The translations under genes and the position numbers were made by a program. This document shows, one piece after another, positions 5,042 through 48,882 of a stretch of 64,000 nucleotides of DNA; position 1 is the stretch's first letter; the number at the start of each line of letters is the position of its first letter. Source of the stretch: Candidatus Iainarchaeum sp. (GTDB lineage Archaea; Iainarchaeota; Iainarchaeia; Iainarchaeales; UBA10191); assembly GCA_030649735.1 (NCBI GenBank), contig JAUSFL010000044.1, forward strand, positions 14,038 through 78,037, in the 5' to 3' direction. The notes beneath the pieces are model-generated. The model saw only the letters and a program-made list of their open reading frames with translations. It was not told the origin of the DNA and did not search any database.

Positions 5042-5755
5042 ATGAATTCAGTCTTGAATTTTTCCACAATTGAAAAAAAGGAAGTCTTGAAGTTTTTGGA
5101 GAACTTTCCAAGCTCTGGCGTGCGTTCAGAGTTTGAGGAATACCGTTGCAAGATTCTGGACTGTGCTGTAGTGCTTTACAAATCGGGAAAGCTTTTGATT
5201 CAAGGAAACTCTGCGGAAAAAGTGAAGGCGACAATTTTGCAAAAGGTTTCTTTCAAGGACGAACTAGTGCTTGGAATTGATGAAGTCGGCAGGGGCGAAG
5301 GCTTTGGAGCTTTTGTTGTTGCAGGGGTTTTGGGAAAAACAAGCGCTTTGCGCGAGCTAAGGGACAGCAAGAAAACCGCAAAGGAAAAAATTCCTGAAAA
5401 GGCAAGGCTTGTGAAAAAAAATGCGGAGTGGTTTTTTGTTGAAATTTCGGCGAGTGAAATTGACTCTTTAAGAGAGTTAGGCACTACAATGAATCAAATC
5501 CAGGCAAACGCAGTGAACAAAATCATCAAGCATTTTGAAGCCGAAAAAGCAAAAGAAAAATTCCGGATTGTAGTTGACGGCTCGAAAATCAAAGGCATTG
5601 ACAAGAAAGCAGAATTTTTGACAAAAGCCGACGACCTTGTAGTGCAATGCGCTGCTGCTTCAATAATCGCAAAAGACGCAAGAAATAATAGCAAGGATTC
5701 TGGAAAAAGAAATACTTGGAAAAGCAAGGAAAATTCAGAGAAAACAAAAAATTAA
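5042..5755 (+). CDS. rnhB: Ribonuclease HII with N-terminal extension
   Basis: GIDEVGRGEGFGAFVVAGV (DE), LRDSKK (DSK), EID, IVVDGS. Contains an in-frame copy of the dispersed 16-mer (ELGTT). Confidence 0.7.
   Translation: MNSVLNFSTIEKKEVLKFLENFPSSGVRSEFEEYRCKILDCAVVLYKSGKLLIQGNSAEKVKATILQKVSFKDELVLGIDEVGRGEGFGAFVVAGVLGKTSALRELRDSKKTAKEKIPEKARLVKKNAEWFFVEISASEIDSLRELGTTMNQIQANAVNKIIKHFEAEKAKEKFRIVVDGSKIKGIDKKAEFLTKADDLVVQCAAASIIAKDARNNSKDSGKRNTWKSKENSEKTKN
5477..5488 (+). repeat. Dispersed element copy (TTAGGCACTACA; context GAGTTAGGCACTACAA), inside rnhB in frame (LGTT)
   Basis: Exact 12-mer; the surrounding 16-mer is identical to the copies at 29045 and 31186. Confidence 0.8.
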
Positions 5756-5779
5756 ATACGCAAACAAGGTGAATATATT

Positions 5780-6220
5780 ATGGAAGTAAAAATCACAAGC
5801 CCAAAATACAATGAAATACTCAAAGTAGGCCAAAAAGTCAAGATAACGTGGACTGCCGATAGCGTTACAGAAAGAGCCGCAACCACAATTGAAATAACTT
5901 GCTATGGCCCGCGTGCAAAGCTTAGCGGCGATATATCTGCAGCAGATATTCCCGCACCCGCAAAACTAAAGTTAATATTCGAAGCTTTGCCAGAGAAAAC
6001 TTTATCTTACGATTGGGTTGTTCCTACCGCAAAAGAATGTAATATTGTTGAAGAAGAAAAAAAAAGTTGGAATGCATGGCACACTTTTTTTAATATTGGG
6101 CCAGATCTTGAATATCATTGGCCAAAAGATCCAGAAACAAGATTTACAATACGAATTGCGGTTCAAAATAAAGAAGAGCCCTGCCAGTCAGACTATATCC
6201 AATTCCAAGTTAAGGAATAA
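5780..6220 (+). CDS. Hypothetical protein
   Basis: 146-aa ORF; its N-terminal ITSP..G..V.ITW pattern is reminiscent of Kre9/KNH1-like domains. Confidence 0.4.
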   Translation: MEVKITSPKYNEILKVGQKVKITWTADSVTERAATTIEITCYGPRAKLSGDISAADIPAPAKLKLIFEALPEKTLSYDWVVPTAKECNIVEEEKKSWNAWHTFFNIGPDLEYHWPKDPETRFTIRIAVQNKEEPCQSDYIQFQVKE

Positions 6221-6243
6221 TTCGACAAGATCATTAAATTTGG

Positions 6244-6807
6244 CTAGTTCCCTTGAAACACAGTGATTGGCTTTTTGAGCTTTGCAGCCTGCTGTTTTGA
6301 AAGAAGAATTCTTTTAACGCTGTTTCCGACAAGCGCTGAATTGCCGAAAGGGTCAAGCACTTCAACAGTGAATGAAAATTTGGAGTCGCGCGCAGCGTGG
6401 ATTTTTTCCAAGGCTTTGTCTGCGGCTTTGACTTCTTTGGGCTCTTTTGCAGAGCTTACCAGAATTTCAGCGACTTGCTGAATGCGGTCCAAAAGGCCTT
6501 CAATGTTGCTGAAATAGCCGTCACTTGCAGGCCCTGGTTCGATTAAAACTCCGAGCTCTGGAATTTTTATTGTTGCAGTTGAACTTTTGATTATTTTAAT
6601 GCTCAAGTGCGAAGGCTTTGAAATTTTTGCAGAATACTCGACTGGCTTTTTGAAGTCAAGGCTCATTACGTCAGAAAGCTTAAAGCCGCACTTTTCACAA
6701 TGCAGGACTGAAAAAAGCATTTTTCCAAAATTAGCAATTTCTTCAACAGTCTGCTGCAGTTGAATGTCTGCATTGCAGTTCGGGCATTTTACGTTCTGAG
6801 TGGGCAT
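6244..6807 (-). CDS. ZPR1-type zinc-finger protein
   Basis: CPNC...CEKC zinc ribbon followed by the DPFGNSAL (ZPR1 DPxGNS) motif. Confidence 0.7.
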   Translation of the reverse strand: MPTQNVKCPNCNADIQLQQTVEEIANFGKMLFSVLHCEKCGFKLSDVMSLDFKKPVEYSAKISKPSHLSIKIIKSSTATIKIPELGVLIEPGPASDGYFSNIEGLLDRIQQVAEILVSSAKEPKEVKAADKALEKIHAARDSKFSFTVEVLDPFGNSALVGNSVKRILLSKQQAAKLKKPITVFQGN

Positions 6808-6853
6808 GAAAGAAATTAGAAAGCTTGTGATTTAATGCTTTATGGTCTGGAGT

Positions 6854-7396
6854 CTAGCGCTTTGCTGTTCTTCCGCGCGGAGTCCTGGCTTTAAAAATTT
6901 GAGAGCTCAAGAATTCTTCATCCTGTTTTCTCAAGCTATCATAGCTTGTGGTTCTAGGGTTTCTTCCAATTGCAAGCTGGGCCGCAATTATTTCCTTCAA
7001 GGCCTTGATTTCATTTTCAGTGTCAGAGCGGAAATTGTCAAACTTTTCAAGCCTTTTTTCAAAAGGAAGCAGTTTTGTTTCTTCAACGCCCGCGCTTTCT
7101 GATTTTGAAGCGACTAATTCCTGCTCCAAGTCATTAAGCCTTGAATGCGCCATGTCTGTCTTTTTGCTCATTGCATTAAGCCTTGACTGGATTGCAATCA
7201 TTGTTTCTGCAGTGGAATAGTCTGCCGGAAGCCTTGATTCTGAGGCAAGTTCCTTGTTAAAGTAAACTTTCACTTCAGGATTGCTTGGCTCTTGAAAGAC
7301 GCGTTTGGGCTTTGAAAGGTCAATAAGCCACACTACCAAGAATAAAATAACTGCCGATGCAAGCAAAATCAAGGAAAGCTCAGTCATTAACCCCAC
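6854..7396 (-). CDS. Membrane-anchored coiled-coil hypothetical protein
   Basis: N-terminal TM helix (LSLILLASAVILFLVVWLI) followed by a charged helical region. Confidence 0.45.
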   Translation of the reverse strand: MGLMTELSLILLASAVILFLVVWLIDLSKPKRVFQEPSNPEVKVYFNKELASESRLPADYSTAETMIAIQSRLNAMSKKTDMAHSRLNDLEQELVASKSESAGVEETKLLPFEKRLEKFDNFRSDTENEIKALKEIIAAQLAIGRNPRTTSYDSLRKQDEEFLSSQIFKARTPRGRTAKR

Positions 7397-7468
7397 TAAA
7401 TTAATTAGTGAAAAGAAACTCTTTTAAATCAGAAAAGCCGGCTTTAAAAGAAAACAGTGTTTTTGGCA

Positions 7469-7960
7469 TTATTTGTACTTGTAGTCGTAAGTTCCGTAAG
7501 ACACCAAAAGCTCTTCGCCTTTCTTGATTTTTCGCAGAGTTCTGAAATTAGCGCCGTTGTTTTCTGCCTTGATGTTTGGCTTTTTTGAATGATTGATGTA
7601 GAATGAAGGCTCCATTCCATTAAGCCCCAAATCCCATGCCCAGAAAGAGCCGTCTTTTTGAATCACGAAGAAAGCGTCAATCAATTCCAGGACTGCCTTG
7701 TCTGCGTTCTGGAATTCTGAAATATTGAATTTCACCCATTTTTGCTTTCTCACGCTTGGGAAAGGGTTTGTTCCCTTGGGAATGTCCCTTATTGCAAGAA
7801 TTCCAACTCCTTGGACTTTTGAAGGCGCAATTCTGCAGTAAGTGCTTTTCAAATTTTGCAATAATTCTTTCCGCGAGTTCACGAGATTATAGAATCCGCT
7901 AACTCTTTTAATTCTTTCCAAAAAGCGCTTGGAAGTTTTTTTCAGCAGCCTTTTGGACAT
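7469..7960 (-). CDS. SET-domain protein (putative lysine methyltransferase)
   Basis: GVGILAIRDIPKG and INHSKKPN (NHSCxPN-like) motifs and a C-terminal Tyr. The ORF 5' end overlaps the TatD 3' end by ~50 nt; the true start may be later. Confidence 0.65.
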   Translation of the reverse strand: MSKRLLKKTSKRFLERIKRVSGFYNLVNSRKELLQNLKSTYCRIAPSKVQGVGILAIRDIPKGTNPFPSVRKQKWVKFNISEFQNADKAVLELIDAFFVIQKDGSFWAWDLGLNGMEPSFYINHSKKPNIKAENNGANFRTLRKIKKGEELLVSYGTYDYKYK

Positions 7961-8666
7961 TTTCTGCCTGAATGCCTTTCAATTCTGCAATTTTTGAGGC
8001 AATTCTTGGAATCCAAACCGACGAGCATTGTTCTCCAGAGAATTCAAGCGGGCTGTCTGTCTCTAAAAGCAGTTTTTCCAAAGGCAATTCTTGCGCGAAT
8101 TTTTGAATCCATTCACTGTTCAAAACTCCTGCACCCACAGAGACAAAAAAAGAAGTTTTTAGCAAGTCTTTCATTTGCTTTTCCTTGCAGACAAAAGAAT
8201 GCAATAAAACTTTTTGCGCGTTTTCTTCCTGCAGAATGCGCAGCACTTCAGCCCTAGAGCCGCGCGCGTGCACGATCAATGGCTTTTTGAATTCTTTTGA
8301 GAGTAAAATGAATTTTTTGAAAATTGCGACTTGCAATTCTTTCTCTTCTTTTGAAGTTTGCTCGTCAAAATCAAGTCCGACTTCTCCAAAAGCAATTGCT
8401 TCGCTCGCGTGCTGTATGATGTGGTTCATTGTTTCCTCGCGCTTGCTTGCCGAGTCTTCGAAGATGTGAGTTGGATGATAGCCTAAAGCCACTGAAATTA
8501 TTTTGGGAAATTGCATTTTCAATGCAAGGCACTTGTGCAATCCTTCAAGAGTTGTGGAATTTGCGATTATGCGCTTGACTCCTGCTTTTTCAGCCGCAAC
8601 AATGATTTCTGCAGGGTTTTCAAAATAGTCAAAATGACAATGAACGTCAGCCCACATTTTAGTCAC
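7908..8666 (-). CDS. TatD-family metal-dependent hydrolase/DNase
   Basis: HCHFDYF, EVGLDFDE, HARGS and LETDSP motifs. Confidence 0.85.
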   Translation of the reverse strand: MTKMWADVHCHFDYFENPAEIIVAAEKAGVKRIIANSTTLEGLHKCLALKMQFPKIISVALGYHPTHIFEDSASKREETMNHIIQHASEAIAFGEVGLDFDEQTSKEEKELQVAIFKKFILLSKEFKKPLIVHARGSRAEVLRILQEENAQKVLLHSFVCKEKQMKDLLKTSFFVSVGAGVLNSEWIQKFAQELPLEKLLLETDSPLEFSGEQCSSVWIPRIASKIAELKGIQAENVQKAAEKNFQALFGKN

Positions 8667-8698: not shown

Positions 8699-8710
8699 TG
8701 TAGTGCCTAA
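8699..8710 (-). repeat. Dispersed element copy (reverse orientation), intergenic between TatD and the downstream ORF
   Basis: TGTAGTGCCTAA, exact reverse complement. Confidence 0.8.
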
Positions 8711-11418: not shown

Positions 11419-12765
11419 TCAGCGCTTCATGCTGTAACTGTCCTTGAATTCTTCAAAGTCTTCCTGCGGGCCTTTTGGCTTGATTATTTTTGGCAAGACT
11501 TTTTGGATAAAAATTATCAAAGCCAATACTGCCGCAATTCCAACCGCGAATTGCACGAAAATGTCAGTGTTCATTGGCTGGTCTATTGGAGCCTGTTCTT
11601 TAACTCCTGCCTTTAGAATCAACCCAATGCTTTGCTTTGCTTTTTGCGCTTCGGAAATTGCAGCGTCATAGTTTGTTTTCTGGAATGCCAGTTCTGCATT
11701 GGTCCAATAGCCTGAAAGCTTTTTGACTTCAGACTGGCTTTTCCACAAACTCACTTTGGTTTCTGACAAGACATCCAATACAGCGGTTTTGAGTATTGAA
11801 TAGTCTTTTGTTGTGGTTTTGAATGAAGCGTCTTCTGAATAAAGCTCGTTGTATGCCTTTACGCGCTTTAGCCTTGATTGCAAGGAGTCAGAGAACACAA
11901 TTGAATAGGAGATTGCTTCCTTTAATGCCTGCTGGACTGCAAGAATGCTTGCGTTAGCCGCTTGCTTTCTTGAAGAAATAGCGCTCTTGTTCAACGCGCT
12001 TGGAGGCTCTGCAAAGGCCATTAACTGCTGTTTTACTGTAGAGTCCAGGTTTGCGTCGGCAATTGCCTTGCGCAAGGCAGAAACCTTGCTGTCATAATCT
12101 ATTGCTTTTTGCTCTAAAGAACTCATGTCGTCCTTTACTGCTTCAAACGCTAATACAACATTGCTTGATTTTTCAGGCGTTGGATTGCTTGAAAAGTCTG
12201 TTTCTTCAGTCAATGCTGCAGAAATTCCTTTCCCAATTGACTTGCAGTCTTCCTGCATTGAGGCAAGCGCAATTTTCATTTCATCGGCCTTTGATTTTAT
12301 CGCCAGAATTTTGGTTTCTGAAGAGACCAGCGAAATGTCTGACTCTTGCTCTTGCTTTAAAACGCGGTTCAGGCTTTCAAAAAAGTCAATGTTTTGCGGC
12401 GTGAAAAACCACTGGCTTTGCAAGGCTTCGCTTTTAGTGTTCAAGAACCTCAGGAAGTATGCTGTTTTGAATAATTGCTCATTGGTTGTTTTGGATTCTA
12501 AAACTTCAGGCAGTGCTTTTGAGGCATTGACTGAAACAAACCCTGCAATTAAAGTGCCTGAAGTTATTGTGACAACCCAGTATTTTGAGTTTGAGGCAGT
12601 AATTTGGACAGGGGGCGAGATTTCAGCGCTTTCTCCAGTTCCCAAAAAGCCTGAAGATCCGACAAAATCGACTGCCTGGCTTGCTGAAATTCCGGCAAAA
12701 GAAAATGCGGGAATTATTGCAAAAGCCAGCAAAATCGCAAAGAATTTTGAGTTCGCAAAAAGCAT
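11419..12765 (-). CDS. Secreted/membrane-anchored coiled-coil protein (signal peptide plus C-terminal TM)
   Basis: N-terminal hydrophobic signal and a C-terminal TM helix followed by a basic tail. Confidence 0.5.
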   Translation of the reverse strand: MLFANSKFFAILLAFAIIPAFSFAGISASQAVDFVGSSGFLGTGESAEISPPVQITASNSKYWVVTITSGTLIAGFVSVNASKALPEVLESKTTNEQLFKTAYFLRFLNTKSEALQSQWFFTPQNIDFFESLNRVLKQEQESDISLVSSETKILAIKSKADEMKIALASMQEDCKSIGKGISAALTEETDFSSNPTPEKSSNVVLAFEAVKDDMSSLEQKAIDYDSKVSALRKAIADANLDSTVKQQLMAFAEPPSALNKSAISSRKQAANASILAVQQALKEAISYSIVFSDSLQSRLKRVKAYNELYSEDASFKTTTKDYSILKTAVLDVLSETKVSLWKSQSEVKKLSGYWTNAELAFQKTNYDAAISEAQKAKQSIGLILKAGVKEQAPIDQPMNTDIFVQFAVGIAAVLALIIFIQKVLPKIIKPKGPQEDFEEFKDSYSMKR

Positions 12766-12821
12766 AATTGACCAAAATTTTAAGGAAATTCTTGTTTATA
12801 ATGGTTTTCAGGGAAAAAGCC

Positions 12822-13046
12822 TCACTTTCCAAGCAATTGTTTTCTTTTTTCCTGCTGTTGCTCCATGAATTTTTGGATTAGAAAGTAGGCCGCCGCCAGT
12901 ATTGGCGGGATTATTGCAATGAAAGAATTCAGGCCCTGGGTTTTCATTGAAATAAAGTTCAATAGAATGAGCAAAGTGGCTGAAAACTCTAAAGTGATCA
13001 GGACAATCATGACTCGCTTGACATCGCTTAAGGCCCTCATTCTCAA
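12822..13046 (-). CDS. Small two-TM membrane protein
   Basis: 74 aa with two hydrophobic helices. Confidence 0.3.
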   Translation of the reverse strand: MRMRALSDVKRVMIVLITLEFSATLLILLNFISMKTQGLNSFIAIIPPILAAAYFLIQKFMEQQQEKRKQLLGK

Positions 13047-13112
13047 AAACCCCTAATCAAACAGGCAAAACAAATATAATAATGTTTTTTTGCAAAAAAA
13101 CAGGCTGGGGAT

Positions 13113-13388
13113 TTGGTTTTTAAAGTTTCACTTCTAGAGAATACTCTTATGCACAGGAAACAATCGAAAGACCATATTGAAAAGCCAGAGGACAAGATCT
13201 GGAAACAATGGTTTGAAAAGCTCACTCCCAAAGACCATGACAATTACATGTCAAAATTGGGTTTGACTGAAGAAGACAAGGAAGAATTGCCTGTAATTGA
13301 AGAGCAATTGCATTCTTTGGACAGTCCGCAAAAGAGCCAAGAGCAGGCACTTGATTCCAAGGCATTGAAAGGCAAGAAAAAACGTTGA
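13113..13388 (+). CDS. Hypothetical charged protein
   Basis: ORF only. Confidence 0.3.
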   Translation: MVFKVSLLENTLMHRKQSKDHIEKPEDKIWKQWFEKLTPKDHDNYMSKLGLTEEDKEELPVIEEQLHSLDSPQKSQEQALDSKALKGKKKR

Positions 13389-13401
13389 GGGGCGGTTTTG
13401 A

Positions 13402-13773
13402 ATGGGTGAATTGAAAATTTTAAAGTTAAAGGACGGCGATGACGTCATTGAATCATTGAAGGAGTTTGCTTCAAAAAACAACATACAGCAAGGCTACATC
13501 AAGGAAGCCGAGGGAAAAATCAGGGATTTTGAAATAAGCGCTTTTTCAGGCGGCGGAAGCATTCAAAACTACAGGGACAAAAACCAGCAGGACGTAATCG
13601 CAATCAATGGGCAAATTACTCTATCTAAAGGGAATCCGGTAATTCAATTGAAAATTTCAGTCTCCAGGGCTGGATTAAGCGCTGTTTCAGGGCTTTTGCT
13701 TTCAGCAAAGGCTGGGGAAACCCTTGACATTGCAATTGAAAAAAGAGACATGAGCAAAATGATTTACGCTTGA
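13402..13773 (+). CDS. PPC/DUF296-like domain protein
   Basis: ~120-aa beta-rich pattern resembling the PPC (DUF296) fold. Confidence 0.4.
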   Translation: MGELKILKLKDGDDVIESLKEFASKNNIQQGYIKEAEGKIRDFEISAFSGGGSIQNYRDKNQQDVIAINGQITLSKGNPVIQLKISVSRAGLSAVSGLLLSAKAGETLDIAIEKRDMSKMIYA

Positions 13774-13823
13774 AGTCTTGAAAGCCTTATTAACCACTTT
13801 CGACTTTTTTCTTTAGGTCTAAA

Positions 13824-15040: not shown

Positions 15041-15107
15041 AAAGTCTTTTAGGAATTGAATAAAAAAGGTTTCGGTTTTAATAAATTAGTTCACAAGGCG
15101 TTTTTTT

Positions 15108-15828: not shown

Positions 15829-15851
15829 CATTATCTTTACAGGCGGCTTTT

Positions 15852-39691: not shown

Positions 39692-40371
39692 GCATTCACT
39701 TTAATTAATTTTGGGTGGTTATAATTTGCATTGTTTATAACTAAATTGGCTGCTTTTTTTGGGTGGTTTTTTCTAAGGTACCATTGTTGGGCTGGTTTGT
39801 GCCAATGGTTCCACCGAAATATTACTTCTTTTCTGGAAATTTTTCTCACAATTGGCTCTCTTTTAAGTTGCCGTTCAAACGAGCATGAAAATGGAATGTC
39901 TAAAAAAATTCTGAACGCCGGTATCTTGCTAAATTCCTTTTTTGATAGAAAAACGCCCTCAACGATTAAAATTGATTCTTTTTTGACTTGTATTTTTTCC
40001 TTTTTTTTCTTGGTTTTATTGTTAAATATTAAGGATTCTTTTTCTAGTTTGCCTTTCTGAATGAATGTTGTTAGAATTTTTTTTATGGTTATAAAATCAA
40101 ACCATTGGCTATAATATGCTTTCCAGGAAGATTTTCCGTTTCTGATTCTCTTGGTTTCGGTTTTCAAAAAGTCATCCACCCGTAATTGGGTGGATTTTAT
40201 CGCCTTGCTGTAAAGGCTTTTTTTTAGATTGCGGGCAAAGTATGTTTTTCCGGATGCGTCTATTCCGTCCACAAAAATAATGGTTTTCCCACTCTTCAAA
40301 AATGAGTTTACTACCATTGTCATTATTGAATCTGTTTTCCTATTTGGCCAATTCTGTTGGGGCATAGACAT
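39688..40371 (-). CDS. P-loop nucleoside/nucleotide kinase-like protein
   Basis: Walker A VDGIDASGKTYFARNL, ~200 aa. True start probably a few codons downstream of 40371. Confidence 0.5.
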   Translation of the reverse strand: MSMPQQNWPNRKTDSIMTMVVNSFLKSGKTIIFVDGIDASGKTYFARNLKKSLYSKAIKSTQLRVDDFLKTETKRIRNGKSSWKAYYSQWFDFITIKKILTTFIQKGKLEKESLIFNNKTKKKKEKIQVKKESILIVEGVFLSKKEFSKIPAFRIFLDIPFSCSFERQLKREPIVRKISRKEVIFRWNHWHKPAQQWYLRKNHPKKAANLVINNANYNHPKLIKVNA

Positions 40372-40405
40372 TTAAAGAATATAATCATTAATAAAAGCTT
40401 CCGAA

Positions 40406-41749
40406 TTGAATGATTCTATGCAAAAAAGATTGACGGAGAAAATCATACAAGTTGTTCTGAAAGATTTGATTCATCAGCCCACCAATAGTAAAAGCCGCGC
40501 TGAATTGATTTTAGACTGCTTGTTTGAAGGAAGAAAGGGGATTAGCTGGGATTTTCGTTGCGATTTGTATTTCTTTTTTCTGAAAACGATTGTTACTAAA
40601 ATGATGAAAGAGAACCGGGAGCTCATTGATACTGTGAAAAAAGGTTACTGCGATTATTCTATTTTTAAAAAAGCGCTTAACAAGGCCCTCAAACTTTATC
40701 TTACCAGTATTGTGGAATATGGAATCACAACTCCCCAAAAATTTAGCTTTCCATTCCTTGTGGAATTTGAACTCACTAATAAGTGCAATTTGGCGTGTAA
40801 ACATTGTTATGCAAATGCTGGTAAAGAGCTGGCTGATGAAATTAATACTCAAGAAGCAAAAGAAATCCTTAACCAGCTAAACAATATAGGTGTTCCAATA
40901 GTCTGTTTCACTGGCGGAGAGCCCTTTCTAAGGGCAGACTTCTTTGAATTACTTGAACACTCTAATAAAATAGGCCTCTTGACTGTTATAACTAGTAATG
41001 GAACCTTGATTACAAAGGAAAGTGCAGCCAGACTCAAAGAATTGCAAGTGGAATATATTAGAATCAGCTTGGACAGTGCAACCCCTAAAACGCACGATTG
41101 GCTAAGGGGAATGCCAGGAGCCTACGAGCAAACCATTCAAGGAATAAAAAATTCTATCCAAGCTGGAATCAAAACCGGAGTCACTACAGTTTTGATTCAA
41201 GAAAACTCGTCAGAAATGGAACAAATGATAGAACTTTTGAGCCAATTAGGGTGTTCAGATTTTACTGTGTGCAGGTTGTTTCCATTAGGTAAAGGAAGTT
41301 CGTTGCAAAATAGTTTGCTTAACAAAGAAGAATTGAGTAAAGTGGAATCTCGCATTTCGGCAAAAGCAAAAGAGCACCCTAATCTTTTGATGAATCCTTT
41401 GACGCTGGAAGGCAGAATCCATTCAAAAAAAGACATGCTACGGAAAATAACAGACATGATTGGAGGCTGCCCTGCCGGATTAAACGTATGCGCCATTACT
41501 CCTAAAGGGGAAATAAAGCCTTGCGCGCTAATGTCTATAACCGCGGGGGATTTTAAAAAACAAAAGTTTGAAGAAGTCTGGAAAAACAGTCGGTTATTTA
41601 ATGAACTTCGGGATCGCTCGCTGCTTAAAGGAAAATGTTCCGCTTGCGAATTCAAATTTTCGTGCGGTGGTTGTCGTGCAACCGCATATGGTTATACTGG
41701 AGATTACCTTGAGACAGACCCCATCACATGCATGTTACGTATAAAATGA
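40406..41749 (+). CDS. Radical SAM enzyme with C-terminal SPASM domain and ~115-aa N-terminal extension
   Basis: CNLACKHC (CxxxCxxC) and a SPASM Cys cluster (CPAG...C...CSACEFKFSCGGCRA). Confidence 0.8.
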   Translation: MNDSMQKRLTEKIIQVVLKDLIHQPTNSKSRAELILDCLFEGRKGISWDFRCDLYFFFLKTIVTKMMKENRELIDTVKKGYCDYSIFKKALNKALKLYLTSIVEYGITTPQKFSFPFLVEFELTNKCNLACKHCYANAGKELADEINTQEAKEILNQLNNIGVPIVCFTGGEPFLRADFFELLEHSNKIGLLTVITSNGTLITKESAARLKELQVEYIRISLDSATPKTHDWLRGMPGAYEQTIQGIKNSIQAGIKTGVTTVLIQENSSEMEQMIELLSQLGCSDFTVCRLFPLGKGSSLQNSLLNKEELSKVESRISAKAKEHPNLLMNPLTLEGRIHSKKDMLRKITDMIGGCPAGLNVCAITPKGEIKPCALMSITAGDFKKQKFEEVWKNSRLFNELRDRSLLKGKCSACEFKFSCGGCRATAYGYTGDYLETDPITCMLRIK

Positions 41750-41770
41750 CTCCGCTAATGGGATGATAAT

Positions 41771-43123
41771 GTGAAAAGAATACAGAACCTGATTGGAAGC
41801 GCTATAATCAAATCCGCGTTATTTGATTTGTCCAAACCAATAGGGGTTTTAAAGAAAAGCCGTGCTGAACTCATTTTAGACAGACTCTTTGAAGAAAAAA
41901 AAGAGATTGATTGGGACATTAAATGCCGAATTTATTTTTTTCTCTTGAATCAAATAATGGCTAAAATGATTAAAGAAAATAAGATCACGATGCAAACTGC
42001 AAAGAAGTTTTTTCAGGATTACCCTATTTTTAGAAGAATACTCAATAAAACGCTTAAACTATTTCTTCAGAGCATAACTGAATACGGGATTACTATGCCG
42101 CAAAAACTTAGTGCGCCATTATTGGTAGAATTTGAGTTGACTAATAAATGTAATCTTGCATGCAAACACTGTTATGCAAATTCTGGAAGCAAATTTGCAA
42201 AAGAACTGGATTTAAGAGAAGTAAAAGAAATCCTGAACCAAATCAACCAAGCCGGCGTTCCTTTAGTGTGCTTTACTGGCGGCGAACCACTTCTAAGGCC
42301 GGACTTCTTTGACATTTTGAGCCATGCTAAGCGCATTGGTCTTGTTACTATTGTTACAACCAATGGGACTCTAATCACAAAAGAAAAGGCCAGAAAGTTC
42401 AAAGAGCTTGGAACAGATTATATCCGCATTAGTTTGGATGGGGCAAGTATAAAAACACATGATTGGCTGCGTGGAATTCCTGGCGCGTATAAAAGAACCG
42501 TTCAAGGAATCAGAAATTCCATTGAAGCAGGAAACAAAACCGGAATAGGCACAGTTCTAATTCAAGAAAACGTGCATGAACTTGAAAACTTGATTGATCT
42601 GGCAGCTCAATTAGGTTGCACTGACATAAACGCAATTCCGCTCATTGAAAGCGGTCGGGCAAAAAGCACTTTGAATAAAGAGATTCATGAAATGAGCAAT
42701 GAACAAAAAAAGAAAAACGAAGAGTTGATAGTTGCAAAAGCCAAAGAATATGAGGGAAAAATGCTGCTTAATTTTTTGGATTTAGATCATATTCGCAGGG
42801 TAAAAGGTTCATCAAAGCATTTTGTTGGTTGGGCTCAAGGTGGTTGCGCTGCAGGGCGAACAGTTTGTGTCATAAACCCCAATGGAGAAATTCGGCCATG
42901 TATCACTCTTAGATTGAATGTCGGAAGCCTGCAAAAACAAAAGTTTGTAAAGATTTGGAAAAATTCCAAAATAATGGAAGAACTTAAAAACCGTTCTCTT
43001 GTAAAAGGAAGTTGCGGCAAATGTGAATCCAAGTATACTTGTGGGGGATGCCGCGCTGCAGCTTATGATAAATTTGGGGATTATCTTGAATCAGACCCTG
43101 GTTGCTATGTGCGATACTTTTGA
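41771..43123 (+). CDS. Radical SAM/SPASM enzyme, paralog of 40406-41749
   Basis: Same architecture (CNLACKHC; C-terminal CGKCESKYTCGGCRA); recognisably similar along its length. Confidence 0.8.
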   Translation: MKRIQNLIGSAIIKSALFDLSKPIGVLKKSRAELILDRLFEEKKEIDWDIKCRIYFFLLNQIMAKMIKENKITMQTAKKFFQDYPIFRRILNKTLKLFLQSITEYGITMPQKLSAPLLVEFELTNKCNLACKHCYANSGSKFAKELDLREVKEILNQINQAGVPLVCFTGGEPLLRPDFFDILSHAKRIGLVTIVTTNGTLITKEKARKFKELGTDYIRISLDGASIKTHDWLRGIPGAYKRTVQGIRNSIEAGNKTGIGTVLIQENVHELENLIDLAAQLGCTDINAIPLIESGRAKSTLNKEIHEMSNEQKKKNEELIVAKAKEYEGKMLLNFLDLDHIRRVKGSSKHFVGWAQGGCAAGRTVCVINPNGEIRPCITLRLNVGSLQKQKFVKIWKNSKIMEELKNRSLVKGSCGKCESKYTCGGCRAAAYDKFGDYLESDPGCYVRYF

Positions 43124-43145
43124 GATTGGGAAAAAGCGTGATTGA

Positions 43146-44360
43146 ATGGAATTATATATTGAAAGAGCAAAAGGAGTTTGGCTATACGGCCAGAATAATG
43201 AAAAGTATTTGGACGCGTGTGCTGGGACGTTTAACATAATTCTTGGGCATGGGGAAGAACGAGTAATGGACGCCGTCCAAGAACAATTGGGTAAAATGGT
43301 TCAATATTCTTCTTCTTGGAAAAGCCATTTAGTTGAAGATTTCTCAGCAAACCTTTTGTCAATATCTCCAAAAAATTTGGACTCCTGTTTTTGTAAAGTT
43401 ACTGGGGGAAGTACTGCAAACGAAGTGGCCATTAGAATGTTGGCAAAAAATTTAAATAGAAAAAAAGTGATCTTGATGGAAGGCAGCCATCATGGGAATA
43501 CAATTTTTCTTTCAAACAATCAATCTGTTTTGAATGAAAATAATAAAATCTTTGTGAAAATGCCTAAACTTTCCTTTCCATCCATGTCTAGCATGAATGA
43601 TTCGGCATGGGCAAAATCCGCTGCTGATTTGGACTTTTTATTTAAAAAACACTCAAAAGAAGCGGCTTGTTTCATAATTGAACCAATTCAAGGCCGAGGT
43701 GGAAATCTTGTACCCCCAAAGTCATTTTTTAAAACGGTTTCAGAATCAGCTTCAAGGTATAGTATACCCATAATTGCCGATGAAGTGCAAGTGGGTGTTG
43801 GCCGAACTGGAAAGTTTTTTGGAAGTGAAGCTGTTGGCTTGTTACAACCAGATGTAATTGTCTTGGCCAAAGGAATCACTGGGTGTGGTTTTCCTTTAGG
43901 CGTAATTTTATATGACTCAACGTATGGAAAATTGGAATCAGCAAAAGACGGTTTTACTTTTGGATCCAATCTAGTTTCAGTTGCGGCAGCCAAAAAAACA
44001 GTGGAAATAGTGAGCGATCCAAAGTTTTTGCAGGAAATCCAATTTAAAGGAGAATATTTGCGAGCCAAGCTTGAAAAGCTGCAACTTGAGCACAATTCTT
44101 TGGAAGATATTCGCGGCATTGGGTTGTTTTTTGGCATAAAACTGAAGTCTGGAAAAGAATTTCCAAGCACTGAACGCATGATTGCAGTTCTTGCTAAAAA
44201 TGGGGTAATCTGCCGGTCAAGCGAAAACGTTCTTAAAATTAGACCGCCCCTTGTAATAACTTTGGAACAAATTGATTTTTTATGTAAATCATTGGAGGTG
44301 GCTCTGAATGAAACAGAAAGAAAAACTAAATTGGCAAATGGAATTCTTGCGCATGGGTAA
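43146..44360 (+). CDS. Class-III (omega) PLP-dependent aminotransferase
   Basis: IADEVQVGVGRTGKFFG, PLP-Lys region VLAKGITGCGFPLG, ~400 aa. Confidence 0.8.
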   Translation: MELYIERAKGVWLYGQNNEKYLDACAGTFNIILGHGEERVMDAVQEQLGKMVQYSSSWKSHLVEDFSANLLSISPKNLDSCFCKVTGGSTANEVAIRMLAKNLNRKKVILMEGSHHGNTIFLSNNQSVLNENNKIFVKMPKLSFPSMSSMNDSAWAKSAADLDFLFKKHSKEAACFIIEPIQGRGGNLVPPKSFFKTVSESASRYSIPIIADEVQVGVGRTGKFFGSEAVGLLQPDVIVLAKGITGCGFPLGVILYDSTYGKLESAKDGFTFGSNLVSVAAAKKTVEIVSDPKFLQEIQFKGEYLRAKLEKLQLEHNSLEDIRGIGLFFGIKLKSGKEFPSTERMIAVLAKNGVICRSSENVLKIRPPLVITLEQIDFLCKSLEVALNETERKTKLANGILAHG

Positions 44361-45297
44361 ACTCCTTCGAAAAGAAATCACTTCATTGAAACAGTTTAAC
44401 GAACGGCAAAAAATTTCTGGAATTAGCAAATCAGGAGATCCCCAATTTAAAGTGGATAATATTGCTGAAAACTTTCTTTTAAAACAAATAAAAAAGATTT
44501 CCAAAAAAACAAGCATTGCTTATTTTTCAGAAGATAAAGGCCTTGTTCGTTTTGCAAAAAACCCAGAGTATTTGCTGATTTGCGACCCAATTGATGGATC
44601 AAGACCGTTCTCAGCTGGTTTTGAGTCAAATAACTTTTCGATTGCACTTGCAGAAACAAATGGTAAAGACCCCACGGATTTAACATTTGCTCAAATAGTC
44701 TCGGGTTTTTTATTGGAACTGAAAACCGGAGAATATCTTTTTGCGGAAAAAGGAAAAGGAGTTATTCAAAACGGAGCTAAATTTCAACCTAAACCCACTC
44801 GTTTTAATAGCAATAACTTGAACCAATTGTTTTGGAGTTTTGAATTCAATGGAACCCCCTCAAGAATTGTTCATGAAATACTGGGTGATTTGATTGATAC
44901 TTCAGCAAATAAGGGGGGCATTTTTGTTTTCAATTCTGGAAGTTATTCAATTTCAAGAGTGATTACTGGCCAACTTCACGCATATATTGACATTGGAAAT
45001 TTGGTTTTGAAGAAATTTCCCGAACTTGAAAAAGAATTCAAATCTGTAGGTTCGGGATCAATTCTGCACTTGTTCCCGTATGACATTGCAGCCTCCTACA
45101 TTATTGCAAAAGAAGCGCACATAAGCATTGCAGATGCTGCAGGAAATTCATTGGAATCTCTTTCCCTAACAGATTTATCTGCACAAAATCAAACTTCTTG
45201 CGTATGCGCGCTGAATGAAAAGCTATCCAAGAAACTAATTAACGAGATTTCTGTAAACCTAGAAAAAAAACGAAAACAAATCGCTGAAGAACAGTGA
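44308..45297 (+). CDS. Inositol-monophosphatase-family (IMPase/FBPase-like) phosphatase
   Basis: LICDPIDGSRPF (DPIDGT-type motif). Start probably 44338 or 44353. The 3' end overlaps the convergent gene by 59 bp. Confidence 0.7.
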   Translation: MKQKEKLNWQMEFLRMGKLLRKEITSLKQFNERQKISGISKSGDPQFKVDNIAENFLLKQIKKISKKTSIAYFSEDKGLVRFAKNPEYLLICDPIDGSRPFSAGFESNNFSIALAETNGKDPTDLTFAQIVSGFLLELKTGEYLFAEKGKGVIQNGAKFQPKPTRFNSNNLNQLFWSFEFNGTPSRIVHEILGDLIDTSANKGGIFVFNSGSYSISRVITGQLHAYIDIGNLVLKKFPELEKEFKSVGSGSILHLFPYDIAASYIIAKEAHISIADAAGNSLESLSLTDLSAQNQTSCVCALNEKLSKKLINEISVNLEKKRKQIAEEQ

Positions 45298-45874
45298 ATA
45301 AAGCAGCTATTGCGAGTAGAAGCAACACAACGCCAGCCATTTGGCTATCGAATAACAGCAAGATAAAAATTAGAACGAATAACATGCATCTTTCTCCTCT
45401 TTGAATTAACCCATGCATATTGTCAAGTTGTTTTCGCCAGTTAGGGTTGCTGTATGATGCATGCGACTTGGCAAAACTGGTTAAAAAAACACCCAAAATG
45501 CAAGTAAAAATTATATAATTCCAAGAGATAAAAAAACCAAAAAGGTTGACAGAATTCAAATTTAAACTCCACAATCCAACTAACAAAAGAAAGTCAACCA
45601 GGATATCAGATAACCCATCAAAATAATCGCCAAAAGGAGTTTGTTTTTTCAAATATTTGGCTATACTCCCATCAAAAATGTCAAACAGAAAAGAAAGCGA
45701 AAAAAGAATACCTCCTAAAAGAATTTGCTTCTCAACTAAGCTTAGAAAACCGCTAAACCCAAGCACAACTGCCAGTAAAGTCCATTGATTAGGGGATAAA
45801 GGCACGATCGAAAGCATTCTCCCAACAGATTGTTCTAACTCAACCAATTGCTTATCAAATAACCCTTTAATCAT
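45239..45874 (-). CDS. CDP-alcohol phosphatidyltransferase
   Basis: DGSIAKYLKKQTPFGDYFDGLSD matches D-G-x2-A-R/K-x8-G-x3-D-x3-D; multiple TM helices. Confidence 0.8.
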   Translation of the reverse strand: MIKGLFDKQLVELEQSVGRMLSIVPLSPNQWTLLAVVLGFSGFLSLVEKQILLGGILFSLSFLFDIFDGSIAKYLKKQTPFGDYFDGLSDILVDFLLLVGLWSLNLNSVNLFGFFISWNYIIFTCILGVFLTSFAKSHASYSNPNWRKQLDNMHGLIQRGERCMLFVLIFILLLFDSQMAGVVLLLLAIAALFTVLQRFVFVFFLGLQKSR

Positions 45875-46622
45875 TTGTAATGCCGCCCAAAAACAAAATA
45901 AATTCTGGAATTTTAGTAATCTTTGGAAATAGTTGCCCTGTCTTTTGTTGGTATATTACATATTCTTTCCCAAATCTTTGAATCAAATCTTTCTCCTCAA
46001 TTGAAATCCACATCAAAGCAGTTAAGCACACTGCTAAAAACGATAATAAACCAAATAAGCTCGGACTAATAATGAAAAGTCCAAAACAAACCACGACTGC
46101 TATTCCCAAAAAGGGATGGCGAATAAACCGAAAAACCGAGTTCTGCTTCAATTTAAAACTAGAAGGAAAAAATGAGCCCATAACATATATTTCTTCAACA
46201 GAAAAGACTTTTACTGCCTTCTTCCAAATTAACAATGCAATCAAGAATAAGATAAAACCCGCAACGAAATTCACTGGGTGAATTTGTTTTATATTTCCAG
46301 CAAAAAAAGGAATTAGTAAAGCAGAATACCACAAACACATTCCAAAAAAGAAAAAAGGCAGTGCATGACGATAATTTAGTCTTTGATCGCCCGTCTTTTT
46401 TGAAAAACCATGCGCTTTCTTCCAGAGCAAAAAACTAAGCGCGCAATAAACTAACGATTGTAAAAACGGTATAAAATCAAATTTTATAATCGCGTTTGGT
46501 ACAAATGCAAATAGAAAAGCAAAAATAAAAAGCGCAAACAACAAAAAGTAATATCTTGGAGGAGAAATCTCCGGAACTAAATCAAATAAACGCAATTTTT
46601 CCTCACGAATATTCACGGGCAA
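45867..46622 (-). CDS. ICMT/PEMT-family membrane methyltransferase (isoprenylcysteine carboxyl / phospholipid methyltransferase-like)
   Basis: RFIRHPFLGIA...IEEKDLIQRFGKEYVIYQQKTGQLFP signature; polytopic. Confidence 0.65.
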   Translation of the reverse strand: MPVNIREEKLRLFDLVPEISPPRYYFLLFALFIFAFLFAFVPNAIIKFDFIPFLQSLVYCALSFLLWKKAHGFSKKTGDQRLNYRHALPFFFFGMCLWYSALLIPFFAGNIKQIHPVNFVAGFILFLIALLIWKKAVKVFSVEEIYVMGSFFPSSFKLKQNSVFRFIRHPFLGIAVVVCFGLFIISPSLFGLLSFLAVCLTALMWISIEEKDLIQRFGKEYVIYQQKTGQLFPKITKIPEFILFLGGITND

Positions 46623-47614
46623 ATAACCACCTTTACCGCAGTTGATTCTCGTGCAAACCTTCTTGATGCAAAATCATATCCAAGAACTTCAAAAGCTTCC
46701 CGATAATCTTTCAAACCAAACTTGTGAGTAATAATGTCTTTGCCCCTAATTCTTGGCAGTAACTTGATCGCTTGTTTAAATGTACCAGAGTCCATATTGA
46801 CTCCAAGAATATCCACGTTCTTTTGAGCAATCAAAAAAGGTTCAATCTTCTCAACATGCCCTGGACTCATTCCAAATAACACTAACTTGCCAGCAGGCTT
46901 GACCAAGCGAACCCCCAGCTCAAACGCTTGCCCAGAAGAATCAATCACAAAATTAAAACCATTCGATTCATCCCCCTGGCAAATTGTTATCCCAAACTTT
47001 TGAGCAAAAGCACACCTAAACTCGGACTTTTCAACGCCAAAAACTTTTATTCCCCTCAATCTAAAGAGTTCAGCCCAAATCAACCCAGTAGGACCAAGAC
47101 CAATAATACACGCTGTTTGATTCTTTTTGATGTTAAGCCGATTAAAACCATTCAATATACACGCCAATGGCTCAACCAAAGTAGCTTCTTCAAAGCTAAT
47201 ATTATCAGACAACTTATACACATTACTTTCTCTGATTTTCACAAAAGCAGCAAATGCCCCGTTGATATTAACACCCAACTCACCATTTCCGCCAGTACCT
47301 AAATTTTTACACAAATTCTGCTTTCCATCAAGACAAAACTCACAATTCCCGCAAGTTAGTGTTGGATCAGCAACTACCATATCCCCAATTTTAAATCGCC
47401 TTGCTTTATTCCCTGTTGAAGTAATTACGCCGGAAAATTCATGACCCAGAACAATATTATCTAAACAACCCATAATCCCTGAAACAATCTTTAAATCAGA
47501 CCCGCAAATTCCGCAACAATTAACCCTAATCAGAACCTCATCTGGTAAAACGGCTGGCATGGGAAATTGGCTCACTTCCAGACTACTCTTTTTAGACAAA
47601 CACAATGCATCCAT
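46613..47614 (-). CDS. Zinc-dependent medium-chain alcohol/polyol dehydrogenase
   Basis: GHEFSGVI, Cys-rich structural-zinc loop (CGNCEFC), Rossmann IGLGPTGL. Start taken at MDALCL; the ORF track extends to 47668. Confidence 0.82.
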   Translation of the reverse strand: MDALCLSKKSSLEVSQFPMPAVLPDEVLIRVNCCGICGSDLKIVSGIMGCLDNIVLGHEFSGVITSTGNKARRFKIGDMVVADPTLTCGNCEFCLDGKQNLCKNLGTGGNGELGVNINGAFAAFVKIRESNVYKLSDNISFEEATLVEPLACILNGFNRLNIKKNQTACIIGLGPTGLIWAELFRLRGIKVFGVEKSEFRCAFAQKFGITICQGDESNGFNFVIDSSGQAFELGVRLVKPAGKLVLFGMSPGHVEKIEPFLIAQKNVDILGVNMDSGTFKQAIKLLPRIRGKDIITHKFGLKDYREAFEVLGYDFASRRFARESTAVKVVICP

Positions 47615-48033
47615 AAACATGGAAATAAGGTTGTTACTGAATAAAAAAATAGCACATTCTAATGCCAAAATTAGTGTATAATGATTTGATAATTATTATA
47701 GTGGGTCTTTTAGATATCTTCTTTCAAAATAATCAATTAATTGTAAATTACAAGTTTAGAACTATGATTACATTTGTTTATGATAAAAAATTGTTAAAAC
47801 ATCAACTGAAAATCCAAAATATGATTAATTAAGTCTGGATTGAACTTCGAATTTCTTGTATATTCTATGGGTTTTTAAGTGTAGGAATTGCCTTGCTTTT
47901 AGCTGATTTCTAGTAATCCTTGTTGTTTTTTCTATTAATTAGACTAGATTAGCTTTATTCTTGGCAAAAAGAAATAATTAAGCTTATTTGCTGGTTTTAG
48001 TTTTTGCAGTTTCTTTTTTTCTGGGTTATTTTT

Positions 48034-48044
48034 TGTAGTGCCTA
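48034..48044 (-). repeat. Dispersed element copy (11/12, reverse) in the repeat-dense non-coding block
   Basis: TTTTGTAGTGCCTAT. Confidence 0.65.
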
Positions 48045-48198
48045 TGTCTCTATTTTTGCTTTTGTTTTCGGGACATTTACAAGACATTTTTTGGGTTTGC
48101 GGGACAATTAATTGGCAATTTTATAGTTGATTTTTTTGATTCGTATTTTTTTTGCCGACATTTTCCCGACATTTTTTCACTTTTCCCGACACCCATTT

Positions 48199-48210
48199 TG
48201 TAGTGCCTAA
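48199..48210 (-). repeat. Dispersed element copy (exact, reverse) in the repeat-dense non-coding block
   Basis: TTTTGTAGTGCCTAA. Confidence 0.8.
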
Positions 48211-48296
48211 TGCTGCTTTCAATTTTCCTATTTTCTGCTTAGTGCCATTTTTGTGCCATTTTTTTACTTTGCGTGTCATTCAAAGCTTGCATCTTC

Positions 48297-48307
48297 TGTA
48301 GTGCCTA
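48297..48307 (-). repeat. Dispersed element copy (11/12, reverse) in the repeat-dense non-coding block
   Basis: CTGTAGTGCCTAT. Confidence 0.65.
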
Positions 48308-48482
48308 TGCTCCGCTTTATTCACTTGCTTGCCAGTAACTGAGTTAACTCATGCTTAAATAATTCAATGTAGAAGGTATGTCTAGAGAGTTTTCAAAACT
48401 GCTTTATAAAAGCAGAAGTAAGGACTTCTCATGAGAAACCCGACAACGACAATAAGAAGGCCGGAACAGAAATTAATGCAAG

Positions 48483-48671
48483 GTGAAGAAATTGGAACTA
48501 CAGCAAACTCTTACAGTTAGGAAGAATGAGCAAATGACGGCAAAGCAAGTGGCCTTGTTGCTGGCGAGAAAGACAGATTTTGAGTTAAAGCGAGAGTTTC
48601 CGGTTTTTTGGGAATTGCTTGCAATAAAAAGCAAAAGTTGGAAAAGTGTTGATGATGAGTTTGAATATTGA
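48483..48671 (+). CDS. Small hypothetical protein
   Basis: 62-aa ORF at the edge of the repeat block. Confidence 0.3.
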   Translation: MKKLELQQTLTVRKNEQMTAKQVALLLARKTDFELKREFPVFWELLAIKSKSWKSVDDEFEY

Positions 48672-48882
48672 GTTGAGAATACCAAAGCAAGTAGTGCCTA
48701 ACTGTTTTCTCTGCCTCTCAAACAAAAGAAAACGCAAAAAAATGGTGTTCCGTACAACCCAAAGAAGATGGGTTTGCAAAGAATGCCTTGACGCGCTTGG
48801 AGAAAACCAAATACAACAAATGCTTGAAAAAATTCCTTTGGCTGAAGATATAATATTCAGAAAGCCAAGCATCAATTTTTAG
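48646..48882 (+). CDS. Small zinc-ribbon protein
   Basis: CFLC...CKEC. Confidence 0.35.
   Translation: MLMMSLNIELRIPKQVVPNCFLCLSNKRKRKKMVFRTTQRRWVCKECLDALGENQIQQMLEKIPLAEDIIFRKPSINF
48691..48701 (-). repeat. Dispersed element copy (11/12, reverse) between small ORFs of the element
   Basis: AAGTAGTGCCTAACTG. Confidence 0.65.

Follow-up and report, generated by a model that had tools for sequence, protein, structure and literature searches.

A short DNA word conserved across DPANN archaea and carried by a virus may be a chromosomal recognition site

We examined a 64-kb stretch of contig JAUSFL010000044.1 from Candidatus Iainarchaeum sp. (hereafter the window), which belongs to the Diapherotrites/Iainarchaeota within the archaeal group DPANN and whose GatE protein is identical to NCBI MDO8647995.1. 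A short word with the core TTAGGCACTACA recurs there within, between and at the ends of unrelated genes, among them rnhB, a minus-strand TatD gene (7908-8666, Pfam TatD_DNase), gatE, a LAGLIDADG-like gene, an ogg-family glycosylase gene and genes of an integrated element. An earlier note on this DNA had described the word as a dispersed element that marks gene boundaries and supplies stop codons, and had proposed a recombination site or a termination element. The full consensus is 16-17 nt long, AAAG-TTAGGCACTAC-AA (for genome mapping, AAAGTTAGGCACTAC), and the copies in the window, with their surroundings, are the following.

5477-5488, plus strand: exact copy in rnhB (RNase HII/HIII-like, 5042-5755), read in frame as Leu-Gly-Thr-Thr with an ATG directly after it
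8699-8710, minus strand: exact copy in the spacer of a divergent gene pair, 33 nt ahead of where TatD starts, with the TATA-like run CTTTTTAAAAAAA after it
29048-29059, plus strand: exact copy in gatE (27359-29248), in frame as Leu-Gly-Thr-Thr about 200 nt before the stop codon
29256-29267, plus strand: one-mismatch copy TTAGGCACTACT, 8 nt past the gatE stop and 13 nt ahead of open reading frame (ORF) 29281-29943
29940-29951, plus strand: two-mismatch copy TTAGGCACTATT that supplies, with its TAG, the stop of ORF 29281-29943 and precedes a T8 run
31121-31215, plus strand: duplicate of the gatE 3' fragment 28980-29074 (95 nt, 85% identity), which includes an exact copy at 31189-31200
31632-31643, plus strand: exact copy in antisense overlap with the stop of the LAGLIDADG-like gene (31639-32826, minus strand)
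35608-35619, minus strand: exact copy in the ogg-family glycosylase gene (35302-36201, minus strand), in frame as Leu-Gly-Thr-Thr
38522-38533, plus strand: one-mismatch copy (ending ACG), whose TAG serves as stop codon for the C-terminal half of a split integrase (37950-38525)
48034-48045, minus strand: one-mismatch copy ATAGGCACTACA in the non-coding block of the integrated element
48199-48210, minus strand: exact copy in the same non-coding block, amid short iterated AAAATGNNNNN units
48297-48308, minus strand: one-mismatch copy in the non-coding block, with the second word GCGGAGCA directly before it
48690-48701, minus strand: one-mismatch copy (ending ACT) in small ORF 48585-48875 (minus strand), in the Leu-Gly-Thr-Thr frame, as (48875-48701) mod 3 = 0

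The repeat is real and far beyond chance. Seven copies match TTAGGCACTACA exactly (5477, 29048, 31189 and 31632 on the plus strand; 8699, 35608 and 48199 on the minus strand), compared with no exact match in 100 dinucleotide-preserving shuffles of the window, and 14 matches with at most two mismatches were found where 3.2 were expected. Thirteen of these 14 contain the core TAGGCACTA, and the fourteenth, at 5167, is probably a chance match. The 10-mer TAGGCACTAC, with 12 copies, is the most over-represented word in the window outside low-complexity sequence. Eleven of the 13 copies fall within 29-49 kb, and stretches of 20 kb and 15 kb are free of copies.

Much of what the earlier note had observed in the window was confirmed, and its interpretation, taken up below, was supported in part. 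Its total of 13 copies stands, but they divide into seven exact and six near copies (one mismatch at 29256, 38522, 48034, 48297 and 48690, two at 29940) and not into eight and five. The 16-mer GAGTTAGGCACTACAA is indeed common to rnhB, gatE and an intergenic copy, the one at 31189; the three reported overlaps with stop codons are present, at ORF 29281-29943 and integrase ORF 37950-38525 through TAG on the plus strand and at the LAGLIDADG-like ORF 31639-32826 through TAG on the minus strand; to the in-frame Leu-Gly-Thr-Thr of rnhB, gatE and ogg a further case was added in ORF 48585-48875; and three copies do lie in the non-coding block of the element, at 48.0-48.3 kb. Two claims failed: the copy at 8699-8710, said to follow the TatD gene, lies instead upstream of its minus-strand start in a divergent spacer, and the flank thought to have been copied along with the motif is part of the 95-nt gatE fragment (31121-31215), which covers both sides of the motif and has no end at it.

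Relatives fetched through the GatE protein (loci L139/L140, L141/L142 and L143; 72-79% amino acid identity) carry the word at the same places. The identical 12 nt are found in L139, L141 and L143 at the counterparts of the gatE site (29048) and the ogg site (35608), all 12 bases being kept in relatives with 61-79% protein identity, and these loci also have an exact 12-mer at or just past the stop codon of gatE or of the next gene. The gatE stop codon of L141 is the TAG of the word itself, in the counterpart of window copy 29256, while in L143 (5887, plus strand) and in L164 a copy lies over the stop of the LAGLIDADG-like gene, as at 31632 in the window. The copy upstream of TatD (8699) has the same place in relative L144 (12702, minus strand). 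Distant Iainarchaeota, with GatE identities of 59% or less, were without Leu-Gly-Thr-Thr at the gatE site and without the word in about 150 kb, and none of the relatives reached by a contig search with gatE (37-58% identity) had it.

A further conserved site was found in the Micrarchaeia, where the word stands in frame at codon 33 of enolase (KLGTTK...PSGASTG) and the synonymous codons around it have diverged. Enolases with the word are 65-93% identical to the query, L178, and two homologues at 65% and 68% lack it. When four lineages were compared, TTA GGC ACT ACA was identical in each of gatE, ogg and enolase, whereas among columns with a Leu, Gly or Thr shared by all four the same codon was used throughout in 20% (gatE), 23% (ogg) and 26% (enolase). 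Because the codons of the word stay fixed while comparable Leu, Gly and Thr codons drift, the comparison shows that the word is selected as nucleotides and not through the protein sequence, which agrees with the view of the earlier note that no protein drives the motif. The shuffles and this synonymous-codon test rule out chance and a protein-driven motif. New copies also arise: relatives with 70% identity read ELGQNLN (GAGCTCGGGCAAAACCTGAAT) at the rnhB site where the window reads ELGTTMN (GAGTTAGGCACTACAATGAAT), and since the closest relatives differ at that site, the alignment identifies the rnhB copy as a recent de novo gain, made through several substitutions that included amino acid changes.

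The word is short, sharply defined and asymmetric, with no palindrome. Flank logos show AAAG and AA as the only conserved flanks, beyond which the sequence is A-rich and otherwise flat, and one-mismatch variants inside the 11-nt core number 12 against about 226-233 exact cores in the same 702 kb of metagenome contigs, described below. The folding energy of 215 flanked copies was not below that of 240 controls, so the earlier conclusion that the word is not a hairpin was upheld. Neither Rfam nor other known RNA families matched the word or its surroundings, and a known RNA family was set aside as its identity. The flank logos and the rarity of inverted close pairs also place the word in no longer repeat, hairpin, or end of an insertion sequence (IS) or miniature inverted-repeat transposable element (MITE), whereas membership in such a terminal repeat is what the earlier note had said would refute it; shared flanks occur only in the 29048/31189 pair, which is the gatE fragment, and the word does not fit the pattern of IS and MITE elements, with their extended conserved sequence, paired inverted ends and target duplications. 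An artefact of sequencing or assembly, for instance adapter or linker sequence, can be dismissed: assemblies made independently (NCBI, JGI, ENA and Logan) have the word in frame in intact conserved genes, at orthologous sites.

Nor is the word confined to one locus, as had been supposed; three DPANN phyla share it with a virus. Searching JGI metagenome contigs for AAAGTTAGGCACTACAA gave at least 120 of them (702 kb, GC content 26-62%), a sample chosen by the motif itself and with crude ORF calls, especially above 45% GC; scans of the collection with a 14-mer (at least 120 matches) were dominated by chance matches. The listed contigs contain 233 exact 11-mer cores, and 61 of the listed loci have two to six copies. 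They are archaeal, one of them encoding aTrm56, TFE and enolase, and the names attached at NCBI to identical or 90%-clustered proteins, which are the depositors' labels for metagenome-assembled genomes (MAGs), were Diapherotrites/Iainarchaeum, Candidatus Micrarchaeia, Candidatus Altiarchaeales and, once, an "Archaeoglobales" MAG. Judging from these comparisons, the word is maintained by selection in the Iainarchaeota/Diapherotrites, Micrarchaeia and Altiarchaeales that make up DPANN "cluster 1". Full-text literature searches found no description of the word in archaea, and no other dispersed, selectively maintained archaeal word of this kind.

The placement of the copies bears out the association with gene ends that had been noticed in the window: 64% of the 233 copies are intergenic, compared with 19% of the sequence. 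Spacers differ strongly in their share (observed/expected by length: convergent 40/16, tandem 66/81, divergent 11/20; chi-square p=4e-10), with a 2.5-fold enrichment between convergent genes, and about a quarter of the intergenic copies provide a stop codon or are no more than 10 nt from one. Those close to stop codons are 25 in sense and 18 in antisense orientation. Copies inside genes use all three stop-free frames, Leu-Gly-Thr-Thr (LGTT), Arg-His-Tyr (RHY) and antisense Val-Val-Pro (VVP), in 43, 23 and 32 cases, and a strict sense-strand or Leu-Gly-Thr-Thr rule, which holds in the window and in the virus, fails in the 702 kb of other contigs. On contigs below 45% GC the in-gene copies are 25 sense to 13 antisense, the 2:1 ratio that follows from the number of stop-free frames.

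There is no robust orientation rule. The orientation of the downstream gene is uncorrelated with that of the word (63 vs 80), and copies more than 1 kb apart form 16 direct and 17 inverted pairs; the overall excess of direct neighbours (87 direct to 26 inverted) is due to tight clusters, with 23 tight direct pairs or triples separated by spacers of 5-42 nt. Neither GC skew nor gene-strand bias correlated with orientation at 60 loci, a weak test as replication origins were not located, and the fixed orientation relative to replication that characterizes Chi or FtsK-orienting (KOPS) sites was thus not seen in these 60 loci and long-range pairs. A replication-polarity, terminus-trap or dif-like site was rejected, since the left-plus, right-minus pattern of the window is not repeated elsewhere and in the Micrarchaeia the orientation switches inside enolase. 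The window itself has plus-strand genes and positive skew on the left (1-29000) and minus-strand genes and negative skew on the right (52000-64000), and this convergence on 30-50 kb could mark a replication terminus or merely reflect gene orientation.

Copies typically cluster, three to six in a few kilobases, and this was also seen at loci that had not been fetched by the motif, namely the window, L267 and L139. L267, on a 1.2-Mb Micrarchaeia contig, has five copies in 4.9 kb and none in the remaining 16 kb, and L139 has three copies within 2.6 kb of its 22 kb. A second short word, [AG]CGGAGCA(A), accompanies the first: it occurs 10 times in the window against 1.9 expected (positions include 28044, 28919, 29002 and 31143, and on the minus strand 35923 and 48315, the last directly abutting a copy), and in the metagenome set it is 10-18-fold enriched within 90 nt of the main word.

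The interval between gatE and ogg varies among relatives. L143, L164, L205 and L240 have two copies 32 nt apart behind the gene next to gatE, with the second word inside the conserved 32-nt spacer, and in the window the same two copies (29256 and 31632) are 2.4 kb apart and enclose three segments, each ending in a copy. L164 and L139, which are 98.7% identical, differ by a 1,282-bp indel (L164 3997-5277 in motif orientation vs L139 12811-12821) that begins 5 nt past a copy common to both and is bordered by a copy on one side only. The segment comprises the LAGLIDADG-like gene, a single copy of the word and the 32-nt spacer, and is a recent gain or loss of a free-standing endonuclease-like gene. 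In the window, L143 and L164 the LAGLIDADG-like gene directly adjoins a copy, but a LAGLIDADG homing target was rejected as the word's identity, as L139 and L141 have the word without having the gene, and the window and viral LAGLIDADG proteins are unrelated. In L139 (12740-12795), and at the same site in L164, a leftover gatE 3' end (...AAISKILKEEIGKLKQKS*) that terminates in the TAG of the word lies some 0.9 kb beyond the stop codon of the current gatE, past a 280-aa ORF, which suggests that an old insertion brought in a replacement gatE end.

The word is also abundant on a virus. IMG/VR contig IMGVR_UViG_3300009320_000030, which we reassembled from four loci, is a 45.5-kb tailed virus (46% GC) with genes for a major head protein, portal, terminase, protease, integrase, two ParB-like proteins and a LAGLIDADG protein, and a tRNA-Met; it has no close genes in common with the window. 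It carries 19 exact copies of the word, placed where ORFs or modules meet; one immediately follows a tRNA, and three, all intergenic, precede a conserved hairpin, GCGACTTGCTCTnGGAGAGCAAGTC. Seven copies lie in frame at module junctions of a single 1374-aa ORF (oriented 11796-15920) that joins a PAPS reductase, an ATP-dependent DNA ligase and two paralogous modules (FVLQHHWRG / FVLSRRWWKG); they include two tandem doublets (KLGTTELGTT), with no stops between. This ORF could be a polyprotein, a product of internal starts or a quirk of assembly. Beside the viral tRNA-Met, at L103 10858-11013 (minus strand), is a tRNA-like gene whose halves, GGAGCCG... and ...GGTTCGAACCCTGCCGGTTCCA, are split by about 100 nt, which suggests an intron-containing tRNA; neither ARAGORN nor Rfam called it, and the word directly follows its 3' end.

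Within the window, five copies lie on a 13-kb integrated element (37176-50197) whose ends are an exact 17-nt repeat of a tRNA-Gln 3' end (37176-37192 and 50181-50197), three of them beside an AT-rich stretch and iteron-like repeats. This part of the non-coding block (47670-48330) is very AT-rich at 47.67-48.0 kb and then holds iterated CCGACATTTT, GTGCCATTTTT and GGGACATTT units interleaved with the three copies; it resembles the replication or partition region of a plasmid or virus. The tyrosine integrase is split into ORFs 37254-37934 and 37950-38525 (PHROG integrase families) by a frame break at 37934/37950 and not at the word, so a split of the type known from Sulfolobus spindle-shaped viruses (SSV) does not explain the copy there, and the tRNA-Gln repeat, rather than the word, bounds the element and rules the word out as its attachment (att) site. 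The cargo consists of two radical-SAM/SPASM genes, an aminotransferase, an inositol-monophosphatase-family gene, a CDP-alcohol phosphatidyltransferase, a PEMT-like methyltransferase and an alcohol dehydrogenase, and looks like a lipid or solute-synthesis island. Outside the element, a TnpB gene (Cas12f1-like TNB domain; 34107-35192, minus strand) lies between an LD-carboxypeptidase gene and ogg and is absent from that place in L143. No TnpA was found near it, and a TnpB guide or target was rejected as the word's identity, there being no copy near the 3' end of tnpB (34107).

Because the word is real, deeply conserved, selected as nucleotides, newly created in places, put mostly where it does least harm, clustered and copied by a virus and an element, it is best read as a location-independent recognition site. 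The reading that we favor, at a probability of roughly 0.35, is that of a selectively maintained site bound as DNA by a conserved, highly specific factor, the best fit being a site that marks the chromosome or an episome in the manner of parS, Noc-binding or matS sites; this follows from the clustering, the conservation irrespective of GC content, the copies inside genes, the avoidance of promoters, the tandem groups and the enrichment on mobile DNA. The reader would be a protein acting on DNA rather than RNA, with a role in organization or partition. Such a factor, with sharp sequence specificity, would require the presence of the word, usually in local clusters of three to six, and not an exact position relative to genes, so that gene-boundary positions and donated stop codons would be side effects of the constraint and not its function. 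The word would persist where it is least harmful, in short spacers behind genes and above all between convergent genes, or inside genes in one of three stop-free frames, mostly as Leu-Gly-Thr-Thr, and would be kept out of divergent spacers that bear promoters. Integrated elements and the virus may copy such sites to hitch onto the host machinery.

Known systems offer partial parallels. The sites of ParB (parS), MatP (matS), Noc (NBS) and SlmA (SBS) are likewise near-perfect 13-16-bp sequences, independent of GC content, found in and between genes, clustered regionally and copied by plasmids and phages, and the clustering of near-perfect sites at any GC, also in genes, is what was found here. 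The palindrome of a dimeric binder was not found: the known sites are dimer-bound palindromes numbering tens per genome. Repetitive extragenic palindromes (REPs) and the bacterial interspersed mosaic elements (BIMEs) that they form are also dispersed short elements behind genes, rare in divergent regions and forming mosaics with short words (here [AG]CGGAGCA), but REPs are imperfect palindromes of 35-40 nt that differ between genera, and the word has no hairpin and is identical across phyla.

Several points weigh against the marking-site reading. Unlike parS, matS and Noc sites, palindromes bound by dimers, the word is asymmetric; no binding protein for it was identified, and ParB-like genes were found only in the virus, where they belong to a type that many phages have and may have nothing to do with the word. 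All 19 viral copies are on the coding strand, and all 13 viral copies within ORFs are in the Leu-Gly-Thr-Thr frame, while on contigs below 45% GC the upstream gene is co-oriented with the word in 42 cases against 14, a moderate bias; such strand and frame biases hint at a role at the RNA level or linked to transcription, for which a DNA-bound site has no need. The distribution data come from the 64-kb window and partial contigs and not from complete carrier genomes, and the density of one copy per 3 kb is inflated because the metagenome sample was picked by the motif.

One alternative, which we regard as rather doubtful, is an uptake or "self" tag like the DNA uptake sequences (DUS), uptake signal sequences (USS) or Chi: a machine for import or processing would prefer or spare tagged DNA, biased uptake with recombination, or selection, would spread the word, and viruses would mimic it. 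The resemblance is considerable, as DUS and USS too have a short, exact, strongly over-represented core with AT-rich flanks, few degenerate copies and particular coding frames, and are kept across taxa against synonymous drift, here in housekeeping genes. USS and DUS are placed behind genes and in tolerated reading frames, which matches the least-harm placement of the word. The de novo creation of the rnhB copy, the lack of an orientation rule beyond 1 kb, and the presence of in-gene copies of the window in genes for DNA maintenance (rnhB, ogg) would also fit. Against an uptake tag, the copies are clustered and leave long gaps, of 20 kb and 15 kb in the window and of 16 kb in L267, instead of being even, and core DNA has fewer of them per kilobase than the variable region, the element and the virus, the opposite of DUS; neither the even core-genome spread nor the depletion from mobile DNA was seen in the window and partial contigs. 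Tight direct tandems are common, whereas DUS typically form inverted pairs at terminators, the word spans three phyla and 26-62% GC, and literature searches found nothing on competence or uptake bias in these archaea.

Transcript punctuation, to which we give a similarly small chance, would have a factor on the nascent RNA, or a roadblock on the DNA, end, cut or stabilize transcripts, with ribosomes masking the copies inside genes. It draws on the enrichment behind genes and in convergent spacers and the depletion in divergent ones, on the quarter of intergenic copies within 10 nt of a stop or overlapping it, on the 42 vs 14 co-orientation with upstream genes on contigs below 45% GC, and on the virus, where the coding strand has all 19, at junctions of ORFs or modules, one after a tRNA and three ahead of the hairpin GCGACTTGCTCTnGGAGAGCAAGTC. 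Tandem copies might serve as fail-safes, and T5 runs are about 2-fold enriched 10-40 nt downstream of the word. Yet selection holds copies in the middle of essential genes (codon 33 of enolase, mid-ogg, and gatE 200 nt before its stop), and the rnhB copy was newly made; stop-proximal copies show no preference (25 vs 18); in-gene copies are 25 sense to 13 antisense, exactly the 2:1 expected; the conserved TatD copy sits in a divergent promoter region with no co-oriented gene upstream; and there is no consistent oligo-T run or hairpin at the copies. For an archaeal intrinsic terminator, then, the record is the 2-fold T5 enrichment, a sense bias of 42:14 on low-GC contigs and 25:18 near stops, and the termination element of the earlier note is accordingly doubtful.

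The other proposal of that note, a site-specific recombination site or cassette junction in the fashion of integrons, harmlessly translated as Leu-Gly-Thr-Thr, fares worse and seems to us quite improbable. It is suggested by the copies that are 32 nt apart in L143, L164, L205 and L240 and 2.4 kb apart in the window, with three word-ended segments between them, by the variable gatE-ogg interval, by the viral 1374-aa ORF that joins modules through seven in-frame copies, by the integrases of the virus and the window element, and by the indel that begins 5 nt past a copy in genomes 98.7% identical. The integron attC or R' core (GTTRRRY) is matched over 7 nt by GTTAGGC, and segments of the window are bounded by direct copies. 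However, 150 ORFs next to copies were common housekeeping genes, among which integrases, transposases and endonucleases were not enriched; the window element is bounded by the tRNA-Gln 17-mer; the L164/L139 indel has a copy at a single end; the gatE-fragment duplicate spans both sides of the word; and in-gene copies are stable at orthologous sites across long divergence. No R''/L'' inverted partner, attC-like fold or nearby integron integrase was found, and the 11-nt conservation far exceeds a 7-nt core, so attC is ruled out on structure and neighboring genes; the main text of the paper on archaeal integrons does not include these phyla among the carriers.

A promoter of a phage-type single-subunit RNA polymerase is the least credible alternative, for although TTAGGCACTACAAT matches 13-14 nt of the T7-like promoter TTAGGCACTACAATAGG of Escherichia coli phage ECBP5, and 8 of the 19 viral copies have an ATG within 5 nt and all point with the genes, at gene junctions, a search of the 45.5-kb virus gave no RNA polymerase gene (its largest ORF of no assigned function has Ig-like domains), the initiation region past CACTAC is not conserved, the downstream gene shows no correlated orientation (63 vs 80), the word has no preference for positions upstream of genes, convergent spacers, where a promoter would fire into a gene end, are enriched, and the word is conserved in cellular housekeeping genes. 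The ECBP5 genome (KJ749827, L130) has TTAGGCACTACAATAGG at intergenic sites 6156, 14613, 24011 and 38286, and a review table gives TAGGCACTACAATA as its promoter (PMC11617373). The identity of 13-14 bases may be a coincidence or a convergence.

Returning to the recognition site, a broader statement of it, to which we would give somewhat less than even odds, is that the word is the cis-element of an unrecognized system ancestral to DPANN cluster 1 (Altiarchaeota, Micrarchaeota and Iainarchaeota). It may be an archaeal centromere, a nucleoid-organizing site or a "self" tag, read by a monomeric or nucleic-acid-guided factor with near-absolute specificity for 11-16 bases, and copied by viruses and elements to exploit or evade that system.

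A word that is identical across three phyla of mostly uncultivated, genome-reduced archaea, at GC contents of 26-62%, and is mimicked by one virus implies a conserved and very specific reader, whether protein or RNA, and a chromosome-level process in DPANN, for which segregation, nucleoid organization, DNA uptake or self-recognition, and transcript punctuation are the candidates. The word could serve as a lineage marker in binning, as a means of linking viruses and mobile elements to DPANN hosts, and as bait for its reader in cultivated carriers such as Micrarchaeum co-cultures. It also presents a case in which a signal at the level of DNA shapes proteins, through Leu-Gly-Thr-Thr insertions, and the ends of genes, through donated stop codons.

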